From the NCBI GenBank assembly GCA_964354775.1, contig CAYHBC010000004.1, positions 1 through 30,664 of the forward strand: 30,664 nt of DNA. Direction: 5' to 3'. The DNA is from an uncultured Dehalococcoidales bacterium (GTDB lineage: Bacteria > Chloroflexota > Dehalococcoidia > GIF9 > AB-539-J10). A program made the position numbers and the translations under genes. Below are positions 5,545 through 17,146 of the stretch, in pieces (positions within the stretch are counted from its first letter, which is position 1; each line of letters opens with the position of its first letter). The notes beneath the pieces were generated by a model. It saw nothing but the letters and a program-made list of their open reading frames with translations. It did no database searches and had not been told where the DNA came from.

Positions 5545-6177
5545 ATGGCGCGCTATACCGGACCTTCCTGTCGTATGTGCCGCTATCTCGGTGAGAAGCT
5601 GATGCTTAAGGGGGAGAAATGCGCCACCCCCAAGTGTCCTCTGGAACGGAAAAACAAGCCTCCGGGGGAACACGCTGTTGGGGGACGCCCCCGGAGAGTC
5701 TCAGAACGAGGGCTTCAGTTGCGTGAAAAGCAGAAAATTCGCTTCAGCTACGGGATGCTGGAGCGGCAGTTTCGCCGCTTCTTTGCCCGAGCACAGAAGA
5801 CGAAGGGCGCTACCGGTGAGACCATGCTGGTATTGCTGGAGAGACGGCTGGACAATGTGGTCTATCGCCTGGGATTTGGCAGCTCCCGCAGCCAGGCAAG
5901 GCAGGTGGTCCGACATGGTCACATACTCGTTAACGACCATAAAGTAAATATACCTTCCTACCTGGTTCGCCAGGGAGATAGCCTTAAATGGCGCAAAGGC
6001 AGCACCAAAACCGAGTACTATAAGAGGATAGCAGGGGAAATTGAGACCAGGATTATCCCCCCCTGGCTGAGCCTGGATAAAGAAAAGATGATAGGCGAGG
6101 TCTTAGCCCTGCCCGATAAGGAGACCCTTGATGCTAAATTCGATGGAAAAGTTGTCGTTGAATACTACTCCAGATGA
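5545..6177 (+). CDS. rpsD: 30S ribosomal protein S4 (Zn-binding form)
   Basis: MARYTGPSCRMCR, QLREKQK, LERRLDNVVYRLGF, ARQVVRHGH, VVEYYSR. Confidence 0.98.
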   Translation: MARYTGPSCRMCRYLGEKLMLKGEKCATPKCPLERKNKPPGEHAVGGRPRRVSERGLQLREKQKIRFSYGMLERQFRRFFARAQKTKGATGETMLVLLERRLDNVVYRLGFGSSRSQARQVVRHGHILVNDHKVNIPSYLVRQGDSLKWRKGSTKTEYYKRIAGEIETRIIPPWLSLDKEKMIGEVLALPDKETLDAKFDGKVVVEYYSR

Positions 6178-7147
6178 CTCGGTTAAATTACCCGTTCCCA
6201 GCGTCAAGTGCATTGAGACCGTAGGCAATTACGGGAGGTTTCTGGCTGAGCCGCTGGAGCCAGGGTTCGGCATCACCCTGGGCAATGCTCTTCGCCGTGT
6301 GCTGCTCAGCTCCCTGCCTGGCGCTGCGGTGACCTGGGTTAGAATTGATGGTATTCAACATGAATTCTCCCCTCTTCCTCATGTTAAAGAGGATGTCATT
6401 GACTTTTTGTTGAATGTTAAACAGATAAGGTTCCGCCCCCTTACCCAGCAGCCAGGCAGGCTGACTCTCGACGCCGCCGGGGAGGGCGAAGTTCGTGCCG
6501 CCGACATTGCGCCGTCGGCAGATTTTGAGATTGCCAATCCTGAACTCCACCTGGCTACCCTGGACTCCTCTGAAGCTAAGCTCCACGTCGAGCTTAATGT
6601 GGATTTAGGCCGGGGATACTTACCGGCAAGACCCGCCAACGACCTCCCCCTGGGAGCAATATCAATAGATTCTATATTCACGCCGGTGCACAAGGTCAAC
6701 TTTTCCGACGAGCCCGTCTACCCGGGAAGGGAGAGGAGCCCGGAGAGGCTCACCCTGGAGGTCTGGACCGATAACACCATTTCTCCCAGCAAGGCTGTTA
6801 GCCTGGCTACCGCCATCCTGGTCAAGCAGTTTTCTCCCTTCCATGAGCTTATTCCACTGGAGGCGGAAAAGGAAGCTGAGGAGGTCAAAAGCGTGCTCCC
6901 CGAGGGTATTCAATTTGATACTCCTATTGAGAAATTAGGGCTGTCCGCCCGTAGCTGCAACAGCCTGGCTAAAGGGGGAATCTTTGTCTTATCGCAGCTT
7001 ATCGAGAAGACCAAGGAAGGGCTGCCATCGCTGCCGGGACTGGGAGCGAAATCTCAAAGAGAGGTAGCTGAACTGTTGGAAAACCTCGGCTTCCCGGCAG
7101 TCGAGAAGTCCCGAAAGCGAAAAAGGGGAAAAGAGGATGAGGCATAA
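6158..7147 (+). CDS. rpoA: RNA polymerase subunit alpha (start codon uncertain)
   Basis: [43 protein letters not shown], alpha-CTD LSARSCN..L / LGAKS. In-frame starts exist only inside rpsD (TTG 6128, ATG 6131, ATG 6143, TTG 6152, TTG 6158); the nearest one is given. Confidence 0.95.
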
Positions 7148-7490
7148 AGTAGCCGGGCGGGGGTTAAGCCGACCGACAGGTCACCGCTGGGCGTTATACC
7201 GGAACCAGGTATCAGACCTCTTAGCTTACGGGAAAATTACCACTACCGAGGCTAAAGCCAGAGAGGTTCGCAGTCTCGCTGAGAAAATGATTACCCTGGG
7301 GAAAGAGGGTAGCCTTGCTTCAAGACGCCGTGCCCTGGCTTTTGCCACCGACAAAAAGGTGGTGGAAAAGCTCTTTGCCGAGATTGCCCCGATGTATGCC
7401 GAGCGCTCTGGGGGCTACATCCGGATAATCAAGCTGGGACCGCGCCCTGGCGATAATGCCCCTTTAGTGCAGCTCCAACTGATTAAGTAG
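7137..7490 (+). CDS. rplQ: 50S ribosomal protein L17
   Basis: [34 protein letters not shown]. Confidence 0.98.
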
Positions 7491-9094: not shown

Positions 9095-9124
9095 TTGACA
9101 GCGGTCTACGAGATTAGCTACAAT
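9095..9124 (+). promoter_or_regulatory. sigma70-type promoter of the CetZ-like gene
   Basis: TTGACA (9095-9100), 18 bp, TACAAT (9119-9124); ATG follows 8 nt later and there is no Shine-Dalgarno sequence. Confidence 0.7.
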
Positions 9125-9132
9125 AATAATAA

Positions 9133-10305
9133 ATGAAACTGCTAGTTCTAGGTCTGGGGCAGTGTGGCGGTAGGATTGCGGATAAGTTTGCGCGGCTGAA
9201 CAAGAGGGCGCAGGCGCTACGGGGAATTGACATAATCGTCGATGCCTTTGCCATTAACACCGATGTTGCCGATTTAAGCGGACTAATCCATGTCCCGGCG
9301 GATTATAAGCATAGAATTATCGTTGGGGGACGAAAGGCAAGTGGACACGGAGTAGGCAAGATAAGCGAGCTTGGCGCTGAGATAGCGCACGAAGATAGCG
9401 ATAAGATTGTAGACGCGATAAGAACGGCGCAACGGTTCCCCGAGACCGACGCCTTTTTGCTGATTGCCGGCGCTTCCGGGGGCACAGGCTCCGGAGCAAT
9501 AGGGGTATTAACCCAACACTTGAGAGAGCGATATGCTGGTAAACCGCTTTACAATCTCCTCGTTCTACCTTTTCAGCAGGAGGAAACGACGGAAACAAGA
9601 ACCATATATAACACCGCCGTATGCCTTAAATCAGCTTATCTGGTGGCTGATGCCATATTCCTCGTCGATAACCAGAGGTATATTGAGAAAAGCGCCTCCA
9701 TCTCGGAGAACCTCGCCCGGATTAATGCCCGGATAGTTGAGCCATTTTACAATTTACTCTGCGCTGGTGAAGAGATAAGACCGAAATATGTCGGGGCAAA
9801 GGTGCTCGACGCCGGAGATATAATACAGACTGCGGTAGGCTGGACAGTAATCGGCGAGGGTAAATCGTTGCTCTCCAGAAAGAAGTTCCCCTTTGAAAAG
9901 ACACGCCATTTCCGGAATAAGGAGGCGGAGACCAATAAAGGGGCTCACGCTATGGACAAAGCCCTGAGCGAGCTGTCATTGGCCTGTAATACTAAAGAGG
10001 CAAGGAGGGCTCTCTATCTCCTCTCGGCACCACCCCAGGAAATGAATATGGAGATAATCAAGGAGCTTGGAGAGAACCTGAGAGCAGTAGCCCCGGATGC
10101 CTTGATACGGAGTGGTGACTACCCCAGACCAAAAGGTTCGCTGGAGGTTACCGTAATTCTCTCTGAAATTCTGGCTCTGCGCAAAGTTACCGCCTACTTC
10201 AGCAAGGCGCTGGAGCTGATTTCTACTATGAAAGCGCGACGGGGAGTCCAATACGCCGGTAGAGAACTTGAGGAAATGTTCGGCGATATTCCGGTGTTAC
10301 TGTAA
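9133..10305 (+). CDS. Tubulin/FtsZ-superfamily GTPase, CetZ (archaeal FtsZ3)-like rather than canonical FtsZ
   Basis: GLGQCGGRIA (T1), AINT..ADL, GHGVG...ELGAEIAHED (T3), AGASGGTGSG (signature loop), LVLP..E, LVDN, INARIV..F..L.CAGE, VLDAGDIIQT (T7). These match the CetZ pattern (GQAGG, GHGVG..NELGAEIAEED, L.GAGE, VVDSSEIINT), not the FtsZ pattern (GGGGGN, GLGAG, INLDFADV). Confidence 0.85.
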   Translation: MKLLVLGLGQCGGRIADKFARLNKRAQALRGIDIIVDAFAINTDVADLSGLIHVPADYKHRIIVGGRKASGHGVGKISELGAEIAHEDSDKIVDAIRTAQRFPETDAFLLIAGASGGTGSGAIGVLTQHLRERYAGKPLYNLLVLPFQQEETTETRTIYNTAVCLKSAYLVADAIFLVDNQRYIEKSASISENLARINARIVEPFYNLLCAGEEIRPKYVGAKVLDAGDIIQTAVGWTVIGEGKSLLSRKKFPFEKTRHFRNKEAETNKGAHAMDKALSELSLACNTKEARRALYLLSAPPQEMNMEIIKELGENLRAVAPDALIRSGDYPRPKGSLEVTVILSEILALRKVTAYFSKALELISTMKARRGVQYAGRELEEMFGDIPVLL

Positions 10306-10327: not shown

Positions 10328-10834
10328 TTATCGTCGGCTCTTGGTAAATATCAGCCAGGTCTGTCCCATAGCCTCATTGTGGGCTTCCCAGGCTTTCTGT
10401 TCCGCTTCCTCAAGGTTTCTTAGCGCCTGCATGGCGCTTTCCTCATGGACCTTCCTCGCTCGCTCCTCAGCTTCTTCCCTGATTCTCAATGCCTGGGCGA
10501 TGCTCTCCCCATAGGCCTTCCTCGCTCGCTCCTCAGCTTCCTCCCTGATTCTCAATGCCTGGGCGATGCTCTCCCCATAGGCCTTCCTCACCTGCTCCTT
10601 GACCTGCTGGTAGGCTTTTCCCGTTTGCTGTTCCTGGTCTTTATAAGCGTCATCTACCTGGCGTTGAGCCTCCAGGTAGGCGGTGTAAGCCATCGTGGCG
10701 CGCTGTTGAATTTCATCAAGGGGAAGGACTACTGGGGGAGGGGCACTCTGCCTGGCTTTCCTGGCGCCCTTCTGGGGTGGCTGTCCCGCCTCTTCTTCAT
10801 TTGCCGCAAAATCTTGCTCTTTTGGGTCAGACAT
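10328..10834 (-). CDS. Hypothetical 168-aa helical protein with 11/22-residue repeats
   Basis: Strong SD (AAGGAGG) upstream of ATG; disordered Pro-rich N-terminus, then a helical region with AY recurring at 11/22-residue spacing; no TM segment. Confidence 0.8.
   Translation of the reverse strand: MSDPKEQDFAANEEEAGQPPQKGARKARQSAPPPVVLPLDEIQQRATMAYTAYLEAQRQVDDAYKDQEQQTGKAYQQVKEQVRKAYGESIAQALRIREEAEERARKAYGESIAQALRIREEAEERARKVHEESAMQALRNLEEAEQKAWEAHNEAMGQTWLIFTKSRR
10450..10589. repeat. Near-perfect 66-bp in-frame tandem duplication (about 2.1 copies, one mismatch)
   Basis: 10450-10515 is repeated at 10516-10581 (plus 8 bp). It encodes RKAYGESIAQALRIREEAEERA twice; a degenerate third copy follows in the protein. 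Confidence 0.95.
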
Positions 10835-10856: not shown

Positions 10857-13133
10857 CTACTTTTGACCTGTTTCATCACCCTCTTCTTCTTCCTCTTCCC
10901 CTTCCTCTTCCCCTTCCCCCTCCTCTTCTTCTTCTACTTCCTCAGCATGTTTATCCTTGTTAGCCGCATACATTTTAGCTAAGAAATCCAGACGCGCCTC
11001 AATTCCTCCGGGGGACTTCTTGGGCACCGCTCGCTCTTCCCCGCCACTACTTTCAGCCCCGGTCAGCATCTCCTCCAACGCCTCCGGCGAAATTTCACCA
11101 GCTTCCAGGGCTGGTTTTCTTATCTTAGCCGCCTCGCTTACCGATTTCTCAAATAGTTGCATCGCTGCTCTTACTGCGCTCCGGGCTGATTTGCTTATTC
11201 CCTCAGCCTTACTAAGCGCTTCCTCAAATGTCCTTACTGATGATATCACCGCCTCCCTGGCTACCCTTATTGATGCATCAGTAGCCTCCTTTGCCATTTG
11301 AGCTGATTCCTCGGCGCTTTGCCGGGCAGCCTGACTTATTTGCTCCGCCTTGCTTATTGCTTCCTGAGACGCCTTCTTCGTCTCCTCAGCAATCTTTTTG
11401 GTAGCCCGGCTTATTTCCTCCGCGCGGCTCACTACTTCCCGGGATGCTGCCTTCGCTTCTTCAGCAGTTCTGGCGTTAACCTTGCTTATTTCCTCCGCCC
11501 TGCTTATTGCTTCCCGGGAGGCTATCTTCGCTTCCTCAGCAACCTCTTTTGCCTCTCGCCCCACTCCCTCAGCTTTGCTTATTGCCTCCCGAGACGCCTT
11601 ATCCGCTCCTTCAGCGGTCCCTATCGCCATTTTACTCATTTCCTCCGCCCTGCTTATCGCTTTTTCAAACGAGCTTACCGACGCTTTAACGGTGGCTATC
11701 GCCCTTTGGCTTATTTCCTCGGCTCGGCTGACCCCTTCCTCAGTGGCTTTAGTTGATTTCTCCATCGCCACCATGGCTAATCTAATTGATTCTTCAGCCC
11801 GGCTTAGCGCTTCCTGAAATGTTTTTTGAGCTTCTTCGGTAGTTTCCAGGGCAGCCTGGCTTATCTCCTCCGTTCTGGCGACAGCCTCCTTGCTGGCCTG
11901 GCTGATTTCCTCAGCCCGGACGCTTGCCTCCTGTGAAATTCGCTTGGCTTCCTCCGCCCTATCCATAGCCCCTTGAGACACCCTCTTCGCTTCTTCGGCA
12001 GCCTCCACGCCTGCCTGGACTGCTGCCTCTGCTTTGCTCATAGCCTTTTGTGATGACTTTCGTGCTTCTTCAGCTTTGCTTATAGCCTCCTGGGATGCCT
12101 GCTTCGCTTCCGCAGCAACTTCCAGGCTCGCCTGGTTGATTTCTTCCGCTTTAGTGGTAGCCTCTTGAGCGGCAAGCATCGCTTCCGAAGCAGCCTCCAC
12201 AGCCGTCCGGCTCAATTCCTCGGCTCGAGCTATTGCCTCTTGAGATGCCTTCTTCGTTCTCCTAGCAGTTTCCAGGGCTGCCTGACTTACCTCTTCAGCC
12301 CTGGCTATTACCTCCTGGGATGTCTTTGCCGATGTCTCAGTAGTCTCTACCGCCCTTCGGCTTAGCACATCAGCTTGGCTTATCATCTCCCCTAATGTCT
12401 TTGTCGCTGCCTCAGACGCCTCCATAGCCGTTCGGCTGACTTTTCCAGCATTGCTTATTCCTTCCTTAGATGCCCTTGCCGCAGCATCAATTGCCTCCAT
12501 GGCTAAGGCGATTGATGCCTCAGCCCGGCTCATTGCTTCCTGGGATGTTCTTATCGCGGTATCGGCTGCCTCTCGGGACTCCTGGCTTATCCTTTCAGCC
12601 TCGCTTACCACTTGTTGTGATGCTGCTCGCGCTTCCTCAGCAGCTTCCCGGGCTATTTGACTTACTCGCTCAGCCTCCTCCAGCGCCTTCAATGAAGTCT
12701 CTTTCGCCTCTTCAGCAGTTCCCCGGGCAGACTGACTCACCTCATCGGCTTTGCTCACCCTCTCCAGGGATGCCTTTACCGCCGCCTCCAGTTTGCTTAC
12801 CGTTTCTTCAAAGGCCTTTGCCGAGGCTTCCGAAGCCTCGGTGGCGAGCTTGATTGACGCTTCAGCCCGGTCTACTGCTTCCCGGGATGCTTTTGTTGCT
12901 CCTTCAGCAATCTCCCTGGCTTCCTGGCTTACCCTCTCCGCCTCCCTTATCGCTTCCTCTAAGGTTCTCTTCGCTTCCTCGGCAATCTTTGTAGCTGCCT
13001 CTCCTGACTCCAAAGCTCTGATTAGCGCCTGCTGCGATATGCCGGTCGCTTCCTCAGCAACCTTCTCCGCCGCCCGCCTCATCGCCTCGGCTCTAGCTAC
13101 TGCCTCTTCAAATGTGCTGGTTTTGTTTCGCAT
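10857..13133 (-). CDS. Hypothetical 758-aa Ala/Glu/Ser-rich repetitive coiled-coil protein with an acidic C-terminal tail
   Basis: 2.3-kb uninterrupted ORF; ATG 13133 is preferred over GTG 13142; 25-residue periodicity; no Pro/Cys/Trp in the repeat region; no signal peptide or TM segment; poly-Glu tail. Confidence 0.85.
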   Translation of the reverse strand: MRNKTSTFEEAVARAEAMRRAAEKVAEEATGISQQALIRALESGEAATKIAEEAKRTLEEAIREAERVSQEAREIAEGATKASREAVDRAEASIKLATEASEASAKAFEETVSKLEAAVKASLERVSKADEVSQSARGTAEEAKETSLKALEEAERVSQIAREAAEEARAASQQVVSEAERISQESREAADTAIRTSQEAMSRAEASIALAMEAIDAAARASKEGISNAGKVSRTAMEASEAATKTLGEMISQADVLSRRAVETTETSAKTSQEVIARAEEVSQAALETARRTKKASQEAIARAEELSRTAVEAASEAMLAAQEATTKAEEINQASLEVAAEAKQASQEAISKAEEARKSSQKAMSKAEAAVQAGVEAAEEAKRVSQGAMDRAEEAKRISQEASVRAEEISQASKEAVARTEEISQAALETTEEAQKTFQEALSRAEESIRLAMVAMEKSTKATEEGVSRAEEISQRAIATVKASVSSFEKAISRAEEMSKMAIGTAEGADKASREAISKAEGVGREAKEVAEEAKIASREAISRAEEISKVNARTAEEAKAASREVVSRAEEISRATKKIAEETKKASQEAISKAEQISQAARQSAEESAQMAKEATDASIRVAREAVISSVRTFEEALSKAEGISKSARSAVRAAMQLFEKSVSEAAKIRKPALEAGEISPEALEEMLTGAESSGGEERAVPKKSPGGIEARLDFLAKMYAANKDKHAEEVEEEEEGEGEEEGEEEEEEGDETGQK
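11116..13112 (-). repeat. Degenerate coding repeat array: about 23 x 25 aa (75 bp) with four 14-aa units and one 22-aa unit
   Basis: Hand parsing, e.g. SREAISRAEEISKVNARTAEEAKAA / SREVVSRAEEISRATKKIAEETKKA / SQEAISKAEQISQAARQSAEESAQM. Confidence 0.85.
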
Positions 13134-13208
13134 ACCCTTCACCCTCGTGAGCCACTTAGTATTCTACTCCTTCTCCCCCTTATTTTACCAAAAACTCAAG
13201 CTCAATAG

Positions 13209-13282
13209 TGGGCCATTGTGGACTCGAACCACAGACCCCGGCCTTATCAGGACCGTGCTCTAACCAGCTGAGCTAATGGCCC
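13209..13282 (-). tRNA. tRNA-Ile (GAT), 3' CCA not encoded
   Basis: GGGCCAT acceptor stem, GCTC/GAGC D-stem, CGGTC-CTGATAA-GGCCG anticodon arm, TGTGG-TTCGAGT-CCACA T arm, ATGGCCC-A followed by CTA. Confidence 0.97.
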
Positions 13283-15252: not shown

Positions 15253-16293
15253 CTAGGCAGGCTCTTGCTCAGGAAGGTCTGAGCTTTGTCGGGCAGCAGT
15301 GCGTAAGGGGACATTTGCCGCTCTGATTTCGCGTTCCAGTTGCGCTGCAGTCTCAGGATGCTGCTTTAAGTAGTCCCGGGCATTCTCCCTTCCCTGCCCC
15401 AGTTTTATCTCCTTGTAAGTGAAGAACGCTCCCGATTTCTTCACTATCCCTGCAGCGACACCGAGGTCGAGCAAATCCCCCTCCCGGCTTATCCCCTGTT
15501 TGAACATTATATCGAATTCAGTGCTGCGAAATGGAGGAGATACTTTATTCTTGACCACCCTGGCTCTAACTCTTGTCCCCACTATCTCCGAGCCCTGCTT
15601 GATGGGCTCGCCCCTTCTTAAGTCTATCCTGATGGAGCTATAGAACTTAAGCGCTCTCCCTCCGGGAGTTACCTCAGGATTGCCGAAAAAAACGCCGACC
15701 TTCTCCCGGAGCTGATTGATGAAGACCACCGCGGTCCGAGACTTGCCAATGGCAGCTACCAGCTTCCTTAATGCCTGGGACATCAACCGCGCTTGCAGCC
15801 CGACATGGGCGTCTCCCATCTCGCCTTCTATCTCCGCCCGGGGCACCAATGCCGCTACGCTATCAATGACAATTACATCCAGGGCGCCGCTCCTCACCAG
15901 CGTCTCGGTGATTTCCAGAGCTTCCTCGCCAGTATCCGGCTGGGAAATAAGCAGGTCATTGAGCTGGATGCCGCAGCTGGCGCCGTATGCCGGGTCAAAG
16001 GCATGCTCGGCATCTATATAGGCAACGATGCCGCCGTTCTTCTGGGCTTCAGCTATTATATGCTGGGCAAGCGTGGTCTTGCCTGAGCCTTCAGAGCCGA
16101 AAATTTCAATAACGCGCCCTCTGGGGATACCGCCTACGCCCAGAGCCAAATCAAGAGATATTGAGCCCGTGGGGATAACCTCTATCGGCACTTTGGCTAC
16201 GGCTTCCCCCAGCTTCATAATTGCGCCCTTGCCAAATTCTTTCTCAATTTGCTCAATAGCCAGCTTGGCGCTCTGCTCTTTTTCTGTCGCCAT
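15253..16293 (-). CDS. recA: Recombinase RecA (346 aa)
   Basis: [96 protein letters not shown]. True start is ATG 16293, not 16911. Confidence 0.99.
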
Positions 16294-16302
16294 TTCGCCG
16301 CT

Positions 16303-16331
16303 ATTATGGCACAGGGCATAGCGCAATGCAA
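16303..16331 (-). promoter_or_regulatory. sigma70-type (extended -10) promoter of recA
   Basis: Minus strand TTGCAT, 17 bp, TGc-CATAAT; ATG 9 nt downstream, no SD. Confidence 0.6.
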
Positions 16332-16363
16332 TTAGAGTAGAGAATAAGATAATATTAAGAAAT

Positions 16364-17146
16364 ATGGAGCCGAAGCTGGACTTGAGATGGAATGACGACG
16401 CGGTAGTGCCGGCAAAGGTAAGCCCCGACCTTGAATTCCTCTTCCAACAGGGCGAGCGCCTCATCCTGGAAGCGGTGGCTGCCCGGGAAGGGGAATACAT
16501 ACTGGATGTGGGCTGCGGGCGGGCTGTTGATGCCGCCCTGCTGTCAGAAAGCGGCGCGGTGGTTATCGGACTTGAGCCTTCAGAGGTGATGTTGTCCCGG
16601 GCTAAGGAGCATCTCGGCACGGTTAGCGCTCCCGTAGCTTTATCCCGGGGGGTAGGGGAGAGCCTGCCCTTCAGGTCAAACTCCTTTGATAAAGTTATAT
16701 GCAAGGGGGCGCTGGACCATTTCCTCTCGCCGGATAAAACGATGGCGGAGATTTCCCGGGTGCTCAAGCCTGGCGGCGAAGCAATAATTGCCGTAGCCAA
16801 CATGGAAAGTTTCGCCTTCCATATCGGTAGGGGAATGTTCAAGCTAAGAGCTATTTTCTTTCCGGGAGCTGACCGCAAGGCAAAGCCCTGGGAGATGCCC
16901 CCCGACCACACCTGTAAATTTGACTACCAATCAATCAGCGGTCTGGTGAGGAGCTATTTCCAGGTGAAGAAAGCGGAGGGAATATCTTTACTCTATGGAA
17001 TGCCCGGTTGGGGCAATATTCTTTCCCTGCTTCCCCGACCCGTCCGCCGCGGTATTCTCGCCCTTCTGGATAAGGTAGCGCGTCCCCTTCCTTTGCTGGC
17101 GGATGTTATCGTGGTGAAGTGCGCTCTTTTTTCCCGGCGTAAATGA
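16364..17146 (+). CDS. Class I SAM-dependent methyltransferase (UbiE/Methyltransf_11-like), substrate unknown
   Basis: [34 protein letters not shown]. Confidence 0.88.

Follow-up and report, generated by a model that had tools for sequence, protein, structure and literature searches.

Within the 30,664-nt stretch of DNA analysed here (the window; contig CAYHBC010000004.1 of assembly GCA_964354775.1, from an uncultured Dehalococcoidales bacterium), an open reading frame (ORF) on the plus strand, positions 9133 to 10305, was found to encode a protein of 390 aa that is almost certainly a CetZ-like GTPase of the tubulin superfamily and distinct from FtsZ. The reading frame (P0001) starts with ATG and follows a ribosomal gene cluster on the same strand, in line with an initial annotation of the window that had seen no dcw (division and cell wall) or ftsA context. 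That annotation had named the motifs GQCGG, GHGVG...ELGAEIAHED, L.CAGE and VLDAGDIIQT as marks of a CetZ-type protein. All of them were found in the translation, the first within GLGQCGGR (aa 7-14), the second in the region SGHGVGKISELGAEIAHED (aa 70-88), the third within LLCAGEE (aa 208-214) and the last at aa 224-233. The FtsZ motifs that had been described as missing are indeed missing from this protein, and they are present in the true FtsZ of the genome, which is encoded on contig 58.

Both domains of CetZ were recognised by profile search. Pfam PF00091 (Tubulin) matched aa 3-184 with 105 bits at a cut-off of 33, and PF21011 (CetZ_C) matched aa 189-360 with 58.1 bits at a cut-off of 21.6, whereas the FtsZ equivalog TIGR00065 of NCBIfam gave 45.2 bits and failed its cut-off of 295.2. 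In a control with 14 genomes the sole CetZ_C match was Haloferax volcanii. When the protein was compared with the PDB by phmmer, its best matches were H. volcanii CetZ1, with E 1.4e-42 in an alignment that covers aa 1-355, then CetZ2 (1.5e-25) and the CetZ of Methanosaeta (3zid, 1.3e-15); the best FtsZ gave 7.3e-10 and the tubulins about 1e-7. Since the Tubulin score (105 bits), the CetZ_C score (58 bits) and the E-value to CetZ1 are far beyond chance, the reading frame and its motifs are confirmed as a real observation at the level of sequence.

An AlphaFold2 model of the protein, computed with a 40-sequence alignment, has a mean predicted local distance difference test (pLDDT) of 91.3. Foldseek placed CetZ1 (template modelling score, TM, 0.93; root-mean-square deviation, rmsd, 1.9 Å), CetZ2 and 3zid on ranks 1 to 3 of the PDB list, followed by FtsZ structures, and TubZ appeared at rank 47 with an rmsd of 5.2 Å. 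We also derived 18 positions at which archaeal CetZ and FtsZ are each strongly conserved and different; measured against an FtsZ reference that is small (7 sequences), the protein shows the CetZ state at 14 of these positions, the FtsZ state at one and another residue at three. Brown & Duggin (2023) use as a criterion for the family those CetZ-specific residues, most of them near the nucleotide pocket, at which the consensus of FtsZ has another state.

With the archaeal CetZ proteins of known structure (H. volcanii CetZ1, 4b46, and CetZ2, 4b45; Methanosaeta thermophila CetZ, 3zid) the protein shares the two-domain fold and the PF00091 + PF21011 architecture. It differs from them in its bacterial host, in an identity to CetZ1 of about 29-33% and in its tail, which reads D-I-P-x-L-L here and L-E-S-L-F in CetZ1. 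With bacterial FtsZ (TIGR00065) it shares the superfamily and the GTPase fold, and its C-terminal peptide recalls the docking peptide of FtsZ; however, its T4 loop contains GGTGSG instead of the GGGTGTG of FtsZ, NxDFAD is missing and there is no dcw context. Reviews and primary papers still term CetZ archaea-specific. The host found here is no archaeon, the contig carrying a bacterial spc/alpha ribosomal cluster, RecA, RecX and SecDF.

The elements on which the activity of a CetZ protein depends could be located one by one (Table 1). In a 40-sequence alignment (A3) the glycines G7, G9 and G12 of the T1 loop are invariant, as are G116 and G119 of the T4 loop, with G117, T118, S120 and G121 nearly so; S120 is the CetZ state of a position at which FtsZ has T. 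A residue-by-residue HMMER alignment to 4b46 pairs D226 of the T7 loop, nearly invariant in A3, with CetZ1 D215, and D229 with CetZ1 E218, the catalytic T7 residue. The exchange E218A is a GTPase-site mutant of CetZ1 (bioRxiv 10.1101/2024.04.08.588506). The M-loop has a hydrophobic/aromatic tip between basic residues and is the sole low-confidence stretch of the core fold (pLDDT <50 at aa 255-258). Its residues SLLSR align with the M-loop tip GLLSRL of CetZ1, and a tip of the form [RK]-[FL]-P-[FW] recurs in clade A, the clade of the phylogenetic tree described below to which the protein belongs. At the extreme C-terminus the proteins of clade A have the consensus (K/G)-D-[ILV]-P-x-L-L, and related tails ending in PLF or PLL occur in many archaeal CetZ. 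The tail FGDIPVLL is analogous to the hydrophobic tail LESLF of CetZ1, and it also resembles the C-terminal peptide of FtsZ, which is LDAPSFLRR in the FtsZ of the same genome. Rod formation by CetZ1 depends on each of three elements, namely its T7 residue, the tip of its M-loop and its tail LESLF (bioRxiv 10.1101/2024.04.08.588506). As judged from the alignments, the nucleotide loops T1 and T4, the acidic residues of T7 and both CetZ domains are shown to be intact.

The genome of the host (1.14 Mb in 107 contigs, 95.7% complete) contains three tubulin-superfamily genes: the CetZ-like gene of the window, a second CetZ-like paralog on contig 3 (1345-2523, plus strand; subclade A4), the 3' part of which is masked by N, and ftsZ on contig 58. 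The latter (397 bits) adjoins ftsA (375 bits), both past their equivalog cut-offs, and its product has the motifs GGGGCN, GLGAGG and NLDFAD. The CetZ-like gene is therefore not the sole FtsZ of the genome. We searched the genome for SepF and did not find it. Neither FtsW/RodA, i.e., the SEDS (shape, elongation, division and sporulation) proteins, nor a penicillin-binding protein (PBP) transpeptidase was found in the genome, and no true MreB, the matches to the MreB model being FtsA and a 637-aa frame of the Hsp70 type (54.6 bits, weak). One protein with a Mur ligase domain is present and is probably FolC. Because FtsW/RodA, the PBP transpeptidase and a true MreB are missing, the gene content marks the host as a wall-less bacterium; the cultured Dehalococcoides and Dehalogenimonas are wall-less (PMC10284905). 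The hosts of archaeal CetZ likewise have no murein wall and have kept a separate FtsZ.

A word-indexed search for homologs gave more than 5,400 matches, the best 120 of which are all about 390 aa long and 65-95% identical, and an exhaustive search of representatives at 50% identity gave 696 clusters at E <= 1e-3 and 65 at E <= 1e-30. Close homologs are labelled Dehalococcoidia or Chloroflexota. As the initial annotation had cautioned, homologs are already in the databases, under the names 'FtsZ', 'tubulin/FtsZ family protein' and 'tubulin-like protein CetZ'. CetZ_C was detected in 60 of 301 evenly sampled Dehalococcoidia genomes. Among these 60 are all seven other genomes of the host family, all ten from other families of its order, and closed genomes of the size of Dehalococcoides (a single contig of 1.4-1.9 Mb) that have two or three copies. 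A sample of the whole phylum (401 genomes) contained 28 CetZ_C-positive genomes, all from the class Dehalococcoidia.

The 301 genomes were also scanned for FtsW/RodA, and the overlap with CetZ_C was compared by hand. CetZ_C occurs in 60 of the 174 SEDS-negative genomes and in none of the 127 SEDS-positive ones (one of the latter, G244, is unpublished and enters this tally only). Every sampled CetZ-like lineage falls within the wall-less clade. A reading of this split as a statistical association was rejected: peptidoglycan synthesis has been reported to be lost in a single event, in the ancestor of 'orders 10-25' (Palmer et al. 2023, PMC10284905), so that the genomes on the two sides are not statistically independent.

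The presence of the family in bacteria is not new: Pfam recognises it, and one sentence of Santana-Molina et al. (2023, PMC9871819) mentions CetZ-like proteins of Chloroflexota-Dehalococcoidia. The 'CetZ-like' sequences of that study are almost certainly the same proteins as those treated here. In contrast to that report, we found the family not to be sparse (60/301), to be present in all the sampled genomes of the host's family and order, to have at least two origins and to have conserved partners. Its breadth, its restriction to wall-less lineages, its multiple origins, the neighbourhoods specific to single paralogs and the coiled-coil partner were undescribed in the literature searched.

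For the phylogeny we combined the Dehalococcoidia locus genes, named archaeal CetZ, the FtsZ1, FtsZ2 and CetZ of five archaeal genomes, and full-length representatives, and reduced this set at 80% identity. As the archaeal CetZ had been collected with an alignment led by group B (see below), the sampling of named archaea is biased to the relatives of that group. A quick tree of 124 rows and a careful tree of 86 rows (IQ-TREE, LG+C20+F+G4 by posterior mean site frequencies, PMSF) agree in topology. A long branch (100/100) parts the FtsZ outgroup from the CetZ ingroup, which divides into an archaeal clade (92/87) and clade A (86/86). Dehalococcoidia and unnamed metagenomic representatives, and no named archaeon, make up clade A (core support 100/97), and the archaeal clade comprises a Halogeometricum CetZ, a Thermococci sequence, and sequences of Methanocellales, ANME-1 (anaerobic methanotrophic archaea) and the TACK group. 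The protein of the window stands in subclade A1 (100/99), and not inside FtsZ or TubZ. Of the two origins that had been considered for it, acquisition from archaea or membership in a distinct bacterial CetZ-like clade, the tree recovers a large clade of Dehalococcoidia, distinct from the archaeal CetZ that were sampled and sister to them. The published boundary of the CetZ family is the clade bounded by the Thermococcales CetZ. Clade A lies just outside the clade with the Thermococci representative, with moderate support and a long outgroup branch, and strictly its members are 'CetZ-like'.

A second set of Dehalococcoidia CetZ, group B, is nested in sequences of Bathyarchaeia, Hadarchaeota and Nitrososphaeria (99/100). 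These proteins are tail-less, 350-375 aa long and score 100-134 bits with CetZ_C; they are 30-34% identical to the protein of the window and 41-51% identical to CetZ of Bathyarchaeia, Hecatellales, Nitrososphaeria, Thaumarchaeota and Hadarchaeota. Group B points to a separate, seemingly more recent transfer between the domains. A gene of this group was also seen in a genome of the host's own family (L040, 4464-5522, plus strand). A third, small Dehalococcoidia lineage (L022) is separate from both clade A and group B. When a constraint held all named Dehalococcoidia rows together as a single clade, apart from the named rows of archaea and FtsZ, the approximately unbiased (AU) test rejected it (p-AU 0.0017), with the grouping chosen partly after the tree had been seen and only the named rows constrained. 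An earlier AU test (p 6e-06) was discarded because unnamed metagenomic rows that interleave with clade A had been forced to the other side. As the single-clade constraint is rejected, the tree implies at least two acquisitions of CetZ-like genes by Dehalococcoidia. That archaea were the donors we infer from the broad archaeal and narrow bacterial distribution, and not from the tree. The most likely history is an old horizontal transfer from archaea to wall-less Dehalococcoidia, followed by duplication into paralogs with different neighbours.

The gene of the most basal lineage sampled in clade A (cluster P0149, 418 aa, 6001-7257, plus strand) was observed as identical copies on several metagenomic contigs, together with a conserved downstream gene of 327 aa. 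On these contigs its neighbours are resolvases, IS605/TnpB, a DDE transposase and the reverse transcriptase of a group II intron, so that the gene has a possible mobile carrier.

The neighbours of 25 CetZ-like genes were clustered with the SEG filter on, and the subclades were found to differ in their conserved neighbourhoods. In subclade A1 a homolog (441-900 aa) of the gene that we call cc761 is convergent with and adjacent to the CetZ-like gene in all eight loci (families f1, f48 and f16), and the other flanks vary. The 761-aa protein contains about 27 copies of a 25-residue repeat, with autocorrelation peaks at lags of 25, 50, 75 and 100; fast Fourier transform (FFT) gave a hydrophobic period of 3.56 (25/7), and Ala and Glu make up 22% and 19% of the residues. 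As a single unbroken helix, if it forms one, cc761 would have a length of roughly 100 nm. Its C-terminal end consists of a conserved helix, R-L-D/E-x-L-x-K-M-Y/F, and an acidic, E-rich tail; within the helix region R717, L721, M724 and K729 are invariant in eight homologs. Comparison with Pfam and NCBIfam gave no family for cc761, and the atlas gave only unnamed Chloroflexota clusters.

A second convergent gene, cc168, encodes a helical repeat protein with an exact tandem duplication of 22 aa (66 bp), in which RKAYGESIAQALRIREEAEERA occurs twice. Both ends of cc168 are conserved, with EIQQRA..AY.AY near the N-terminus and W-x-[IV]-F-T-K-S-[KR] at the C-terminus. In four further genomes of the family, all that were checked, a homolog of cc168 follows the CetZ-like gene; cc168 has no Pfam family, and BLAST detected no homolog outside the host family. 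Two genomes of the same family that have no ribosomal operon upstream still carry the CetZ-like gene, cc168 and cc761. Unlike the gene of the window, none of the archaeal CetZ genes examined has cc761 or cc168 as a neighbour.

For the prediction of a complex, the full CetZ-like protein was modelled together with residues 645-745 of cc761, and three controls were run alongside. The pair scored 0.84 and the best control 0.00 (n=3), on a scale of the model's own confidence where the mark used is reached by 58 of 80 solved complexes and by 2 of 110 mismatched pairs. On the side of cc761 the confident interface comprises residues 714-732, that is, the invariant helix, and on that of the CetZ-like protein residues 166, 169-171, 347-357, 383-384 and 390, i.e., its last helix and its tail. 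The interface residues L170, F356 and F383 are 78-89% conserved in A1 and 0-4% in the other subclades. A hidden Markov model (HMM) for the docking helix, searched against 5,680 frames, matched solely cc761-family genes beside A1 CetZ-like genes and nothing beside archaeal CetZ or the paralogs A2, A4 and A5. Direct binding of the two proteins through the predicted interface appears fairly likely from this model, and that they are a functional pair we regard as quite probable.

As a long uninterrupted alpha-helical rod that has no enzymatic domain and is encoded beside a cytoskeletal gene, cc761 is analogous to the cytoskeletal proteins of bacteria that are rich in coiled coils (crescentin, FilP/Scy and Ccrp). 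It differs from these in having no detected sequence relationship to them, and in a period of 25 residues (25/7) instead of the heptad. A tubulin-family protein paired with a coiled coil via a short C-terminal helix was not described in the literature searched.

Other subclades showed other surroundings. The A4 paralog, which is the type found on contig 3 of the host, lies directly downstream of a gene for a predicted surface protein of 405-633 aa, which has an N-terminus resembling a signal sequence and a transmembrane anchor at its C-terminus. The paralog is convergent with a gene of about 460 aa (terminase-like, as a guess from the sequence) and with one of about 113 aa, and the whole arrangement recurs in eight loci. 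A divergent, tail-less subclade (369-372 aa; L046; L047, 11121-12230, minus strand; L048, 4437-5555, plus strand; L049, 4440-5549, plus strand) always follows three genes. Judged from the N-termini of their products alone, these look like the AmmeMemoRadiSam trio, with a radical SAM, a Memo-like and an AMMECR1-like member.

Taken as a whole, our reading is that a CetZ-type, GTP-dependent filament and a coiled-coil rod serve as an envelope or shape cytoskeleton of a wall-less bacterium, and we hold this to be a reasonably probable account; whether the role lies in cell shape or the envelope rather than in division, we would put at even chances. The CetZ-like protein would bind GTP and polymerise by itself, so as to form GTP-dependent protofilaments under the membrane. 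These filaments would be tied via the last helix and the tail to the C-terminal helix of the adjacent, approximately 100-nm-long cc761. In the host family cc168 would join them, and its aromatic/basic C-terminus may serve as a membrane or docking element. Such an assembly would give shape or stiffness to the envelope of a cell whose murein and MreB have been lost, and would not drive division. Polymerisation, GTPase activity, localisation and phenotype of the CetZ-like protein are all points that we infer. In Haloferax, CetZ1 acts in rod and disc shape (bioRxiv 10.1101/2024.04.08.588506). In Dehalococcoides mccartyi BTF08 an 'FtsZ/Tubulin GTPase' (btf_0551), which may correspond to any of the CetZ-like paralogs, and the nearby hypothetical protein btf_0548 reach high levels in pure cultures, the cells of which are disc-shaped, and are lower or undetected in co-cultures, the cells of which are barrel-shaped (proteomics, PMC8163811).

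Several observations speak against a shape or envelope cytoskeleton of this kind. The literature searched contained no experiment with a CetZ-like protein of any bacterium. In the D. mccartyi proteome FtsZ shifted in the same direction as the tubulin-like protein (PMC8163811), and the tail, being similar to the C-terminal peptide of FtsZ, could bind FtsA and act in division. The restriction to wall-less lineages amounts to one wall-loss event, and CetZ_C is missing from many wall-less families (f8, f22 and others). In the tree, clade A stands beside the sampled archaeal CetZ as their sister and not inside them, a position with moderate support and with a long branch to the FtsZ outgroup. Finally, the complex was scored by the confidence of the model itself, on shallow custom alignments (8 partner rows), and the calibration is rough.

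We considered four other explanations of the CetZ-like gene. The strongest of them is that its product is an accessory or second division protein, whose tail DIPVLL binds FtsA and which joins or regulates the Z-ring, similar to the use of two FtsZ proteins by archaea without murein. This explanation would account for the likeness of the tail to a bacterial FtsZ C-terminal peptide (LDAPSFLRR in the host's own FtsZ), for a genome in which FtsA is present and SepF was not found, and for the joint drop of the D. mccartyi tubulin-like protein and FtsZ in co-culture (PMC8163811); septal murein synthesis is, moreover, missing from wall-less cells. However, no linkage to dcw or ftsA was seen at any locus examined, archaeal CetZ, proteins of shape and not of division, have a related tail as an ancestral feature, and in the modelled complex the tail touches cc761. 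We regard an accessory or second role in division as unlikely. Much less probable still is that the protein is a degenerate tubulin-fold scaffold or regulator that no longer polymerises: T1, T4, T7 and the residues of the nucleotide pocket are conserved across clade A, and the model is confident and close to CetZ1.

The remaining two explanations concern the origin of the gene. A DNA-segregation motor of the TubZ type, either part of a mobile element or descended from one, could be suspected from the basal P0149 lineage of clade A, with its surroundings of resolvases, IS605/TnpB, transposase and group II intron reverse transcriptase. TubZ, the fold of which has a long C-terminal helix, is encoded on plasmids or phages together with a TubR-type adaptor, whereas the gene at 9133-10305 is chromosomal, lies at the end of the spc/alpha cluster and is syntenic in relatives, closed genomes among them. 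No adaptor-like DNA-binding gene adjoins it, the TubZ fold is found no higher than rank 47, and the gene is kept in lineages that have no mobile element. Among 50,697 phage records there was no match to the CetZ-like protein, and the plasmid matches are solely CetZ paralogs on haloarchaeal megaplasmids with less than 30% identity, so that the mobile reading of this gene was rejected and we rate it as very improbable. That the gene is an archaeal one that was mis-binned or misassembled, or a very recent transfer without function, might be thought of in view of an assembly in 107 contigs and of group B genes elsewhere that are 41-51% identical to archaeal proteins. The gene lies, however, 56 bp past the bacterial rpsI, within a 30-kb contig of bacterial housekeeping genes. 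Related genomes, closed ones of a single contig among them, have orthologs of it at 55-74% identity; the GC content of the gene is unremarkable and its functional motifs are all intact. The synteny on one contig and the orthologs in closed genomes refute mis-binning, which we consider the most remote of all the explanations.

The features of the locus are collected in Table 1. Upstream of the CetZ-like gene, and on the same strand, the spc/alpha cluster runs in the order L18-S5-L15-SecY-Adk-Map-S13-S11-S4-RpoA-L17-TruA-L13-S9. Downstream, the two convergent helical-repeat genes are followed by tRNA-Ile, the oxaloacetate decarboxylase beta subunit, RecX, RecA and a methyltransferase, and further on by a GT4 glycosyltransferase, a CCA-type nucleotidyltransferase, SecD, SecF, a HemN-like radical SAM enzyme and a deacetylase. 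The ORF of RecA (15253-16911, minus strand) is listed with 552 aa and its RecA domain begins at residue 215, which leaves either an internal start or a long N-terminal extension.

Table 1. Positions in the window of the CetZ-like gene, its functional elements and the features of its surroundings
Feature	Position	Strand	Basis
Sigma-70-type promoter-like site, TTGACA-18 nt-TACAAT (11/12)	9095..9124	+	consensus match
CetZ-like tubulin-superfamily GTPase gene	9133..10305	+	Pfam, PDB sequence and fold matches, AlphaFold2
T4 signature loop, aa 114-121, SGGTGSGA (tubulin/CetZ-type GGTGSG)	9472..9495	+	alignment A3
T7 loop, aa 224-231, VLDAGDII	9802..9825	+	HMMER alignment to 4b46
M-loop, aa 244-262, GKSLLSRKKFPFEKTRHFR	9862..9918	+	model and CetZ1 alignment
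C-terminal tail, aa 383-390, FGDIPVLL	10279..10302	+	C-termini listing and alignment
cc168, 168-aa helical repeat protein	10328..10834	-	translation; convergent with the CetZ-like gene, 22-bp gap
cc761, 761-aa fibrous alpha-helical protein	10857..13142	-	autocorrelation, FFT
Predicted docking helix of cc761, aa 714-732, IEARLDFLAKMYAANKDKH	10947..11003	-	conservation and complex model
tRNA-Ile (GAT)	13208..13282	-	ARAGORN; 66 bp upstream of cc761, same strand
Promoter-like site, TTGACA-18-TATATT	13323-13294	-	promoter scan; precedes tRNA-Ile

The first promoter-like site lies in the gap of 56 bp between rpsI and the CetZ-like gene. Its -10 box ends 8 nt 5' of the ATG of the latter, and no Shine-Dalgarno sequence is visible; for these two reasons the gene probably has its own promoter and a leaderless or near-leaderless mRNA. 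Five of five genomes of the family have kept the layout TTGACA-17/18 nt-TA(N)AAT-~8 nt-ATG, two of them with no ribosomal operon upstream. More distant orthologs, in two other families, have GGAGG in place of this layout. The tRNA-Ile may be co-transcribed with cc761 and cc168.

Our broader proposal is a tentative one. After the single loss of peptidoglycan in the ancestor of Dehalococcoidales and marine Dehalococcoidia, accompanied at least in the present host by the loss of MreB, these bacteria may have taken up an archaeal-type CetZ and built around it a new cytoskeleton specific to bacteria. In this cytoskeleton filaments would be coupled through their C-terminal helix and tail to cc761 rods of approximately 100 nm and to cc168 adaptors, and the paralogs would be wired to other partners, such as the surface protein with a transmembrane anchor and the AmmeMemoRadiSam trio. 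It would be this system, and not FtsZ, that sets the disc-like shape of cells such as Dehalococcoides.

A large and conserved bacterial CetZ branch with a predicted partner would mean that a third lineage of the tubulin superfamily works in Bacteria too. If the pairing is true, cc761 would be the first defined partner of CetZ in any organism, within the literature searched, and the predicted interface between CetZ and the coiled coil is specific enough for tests with peptides and point mutants. The finding also adds to the archaeal cell-envelope and motility machinery that has been reported in Chloroflexota, for example the archaellum. The CetZ-like protein and its predicted partner are thus a candidate answer to how shape is controlled in bacteria that have neither a wall nor MreB, among them Dehalococcoides mccartyi, an organism of bioremediation.

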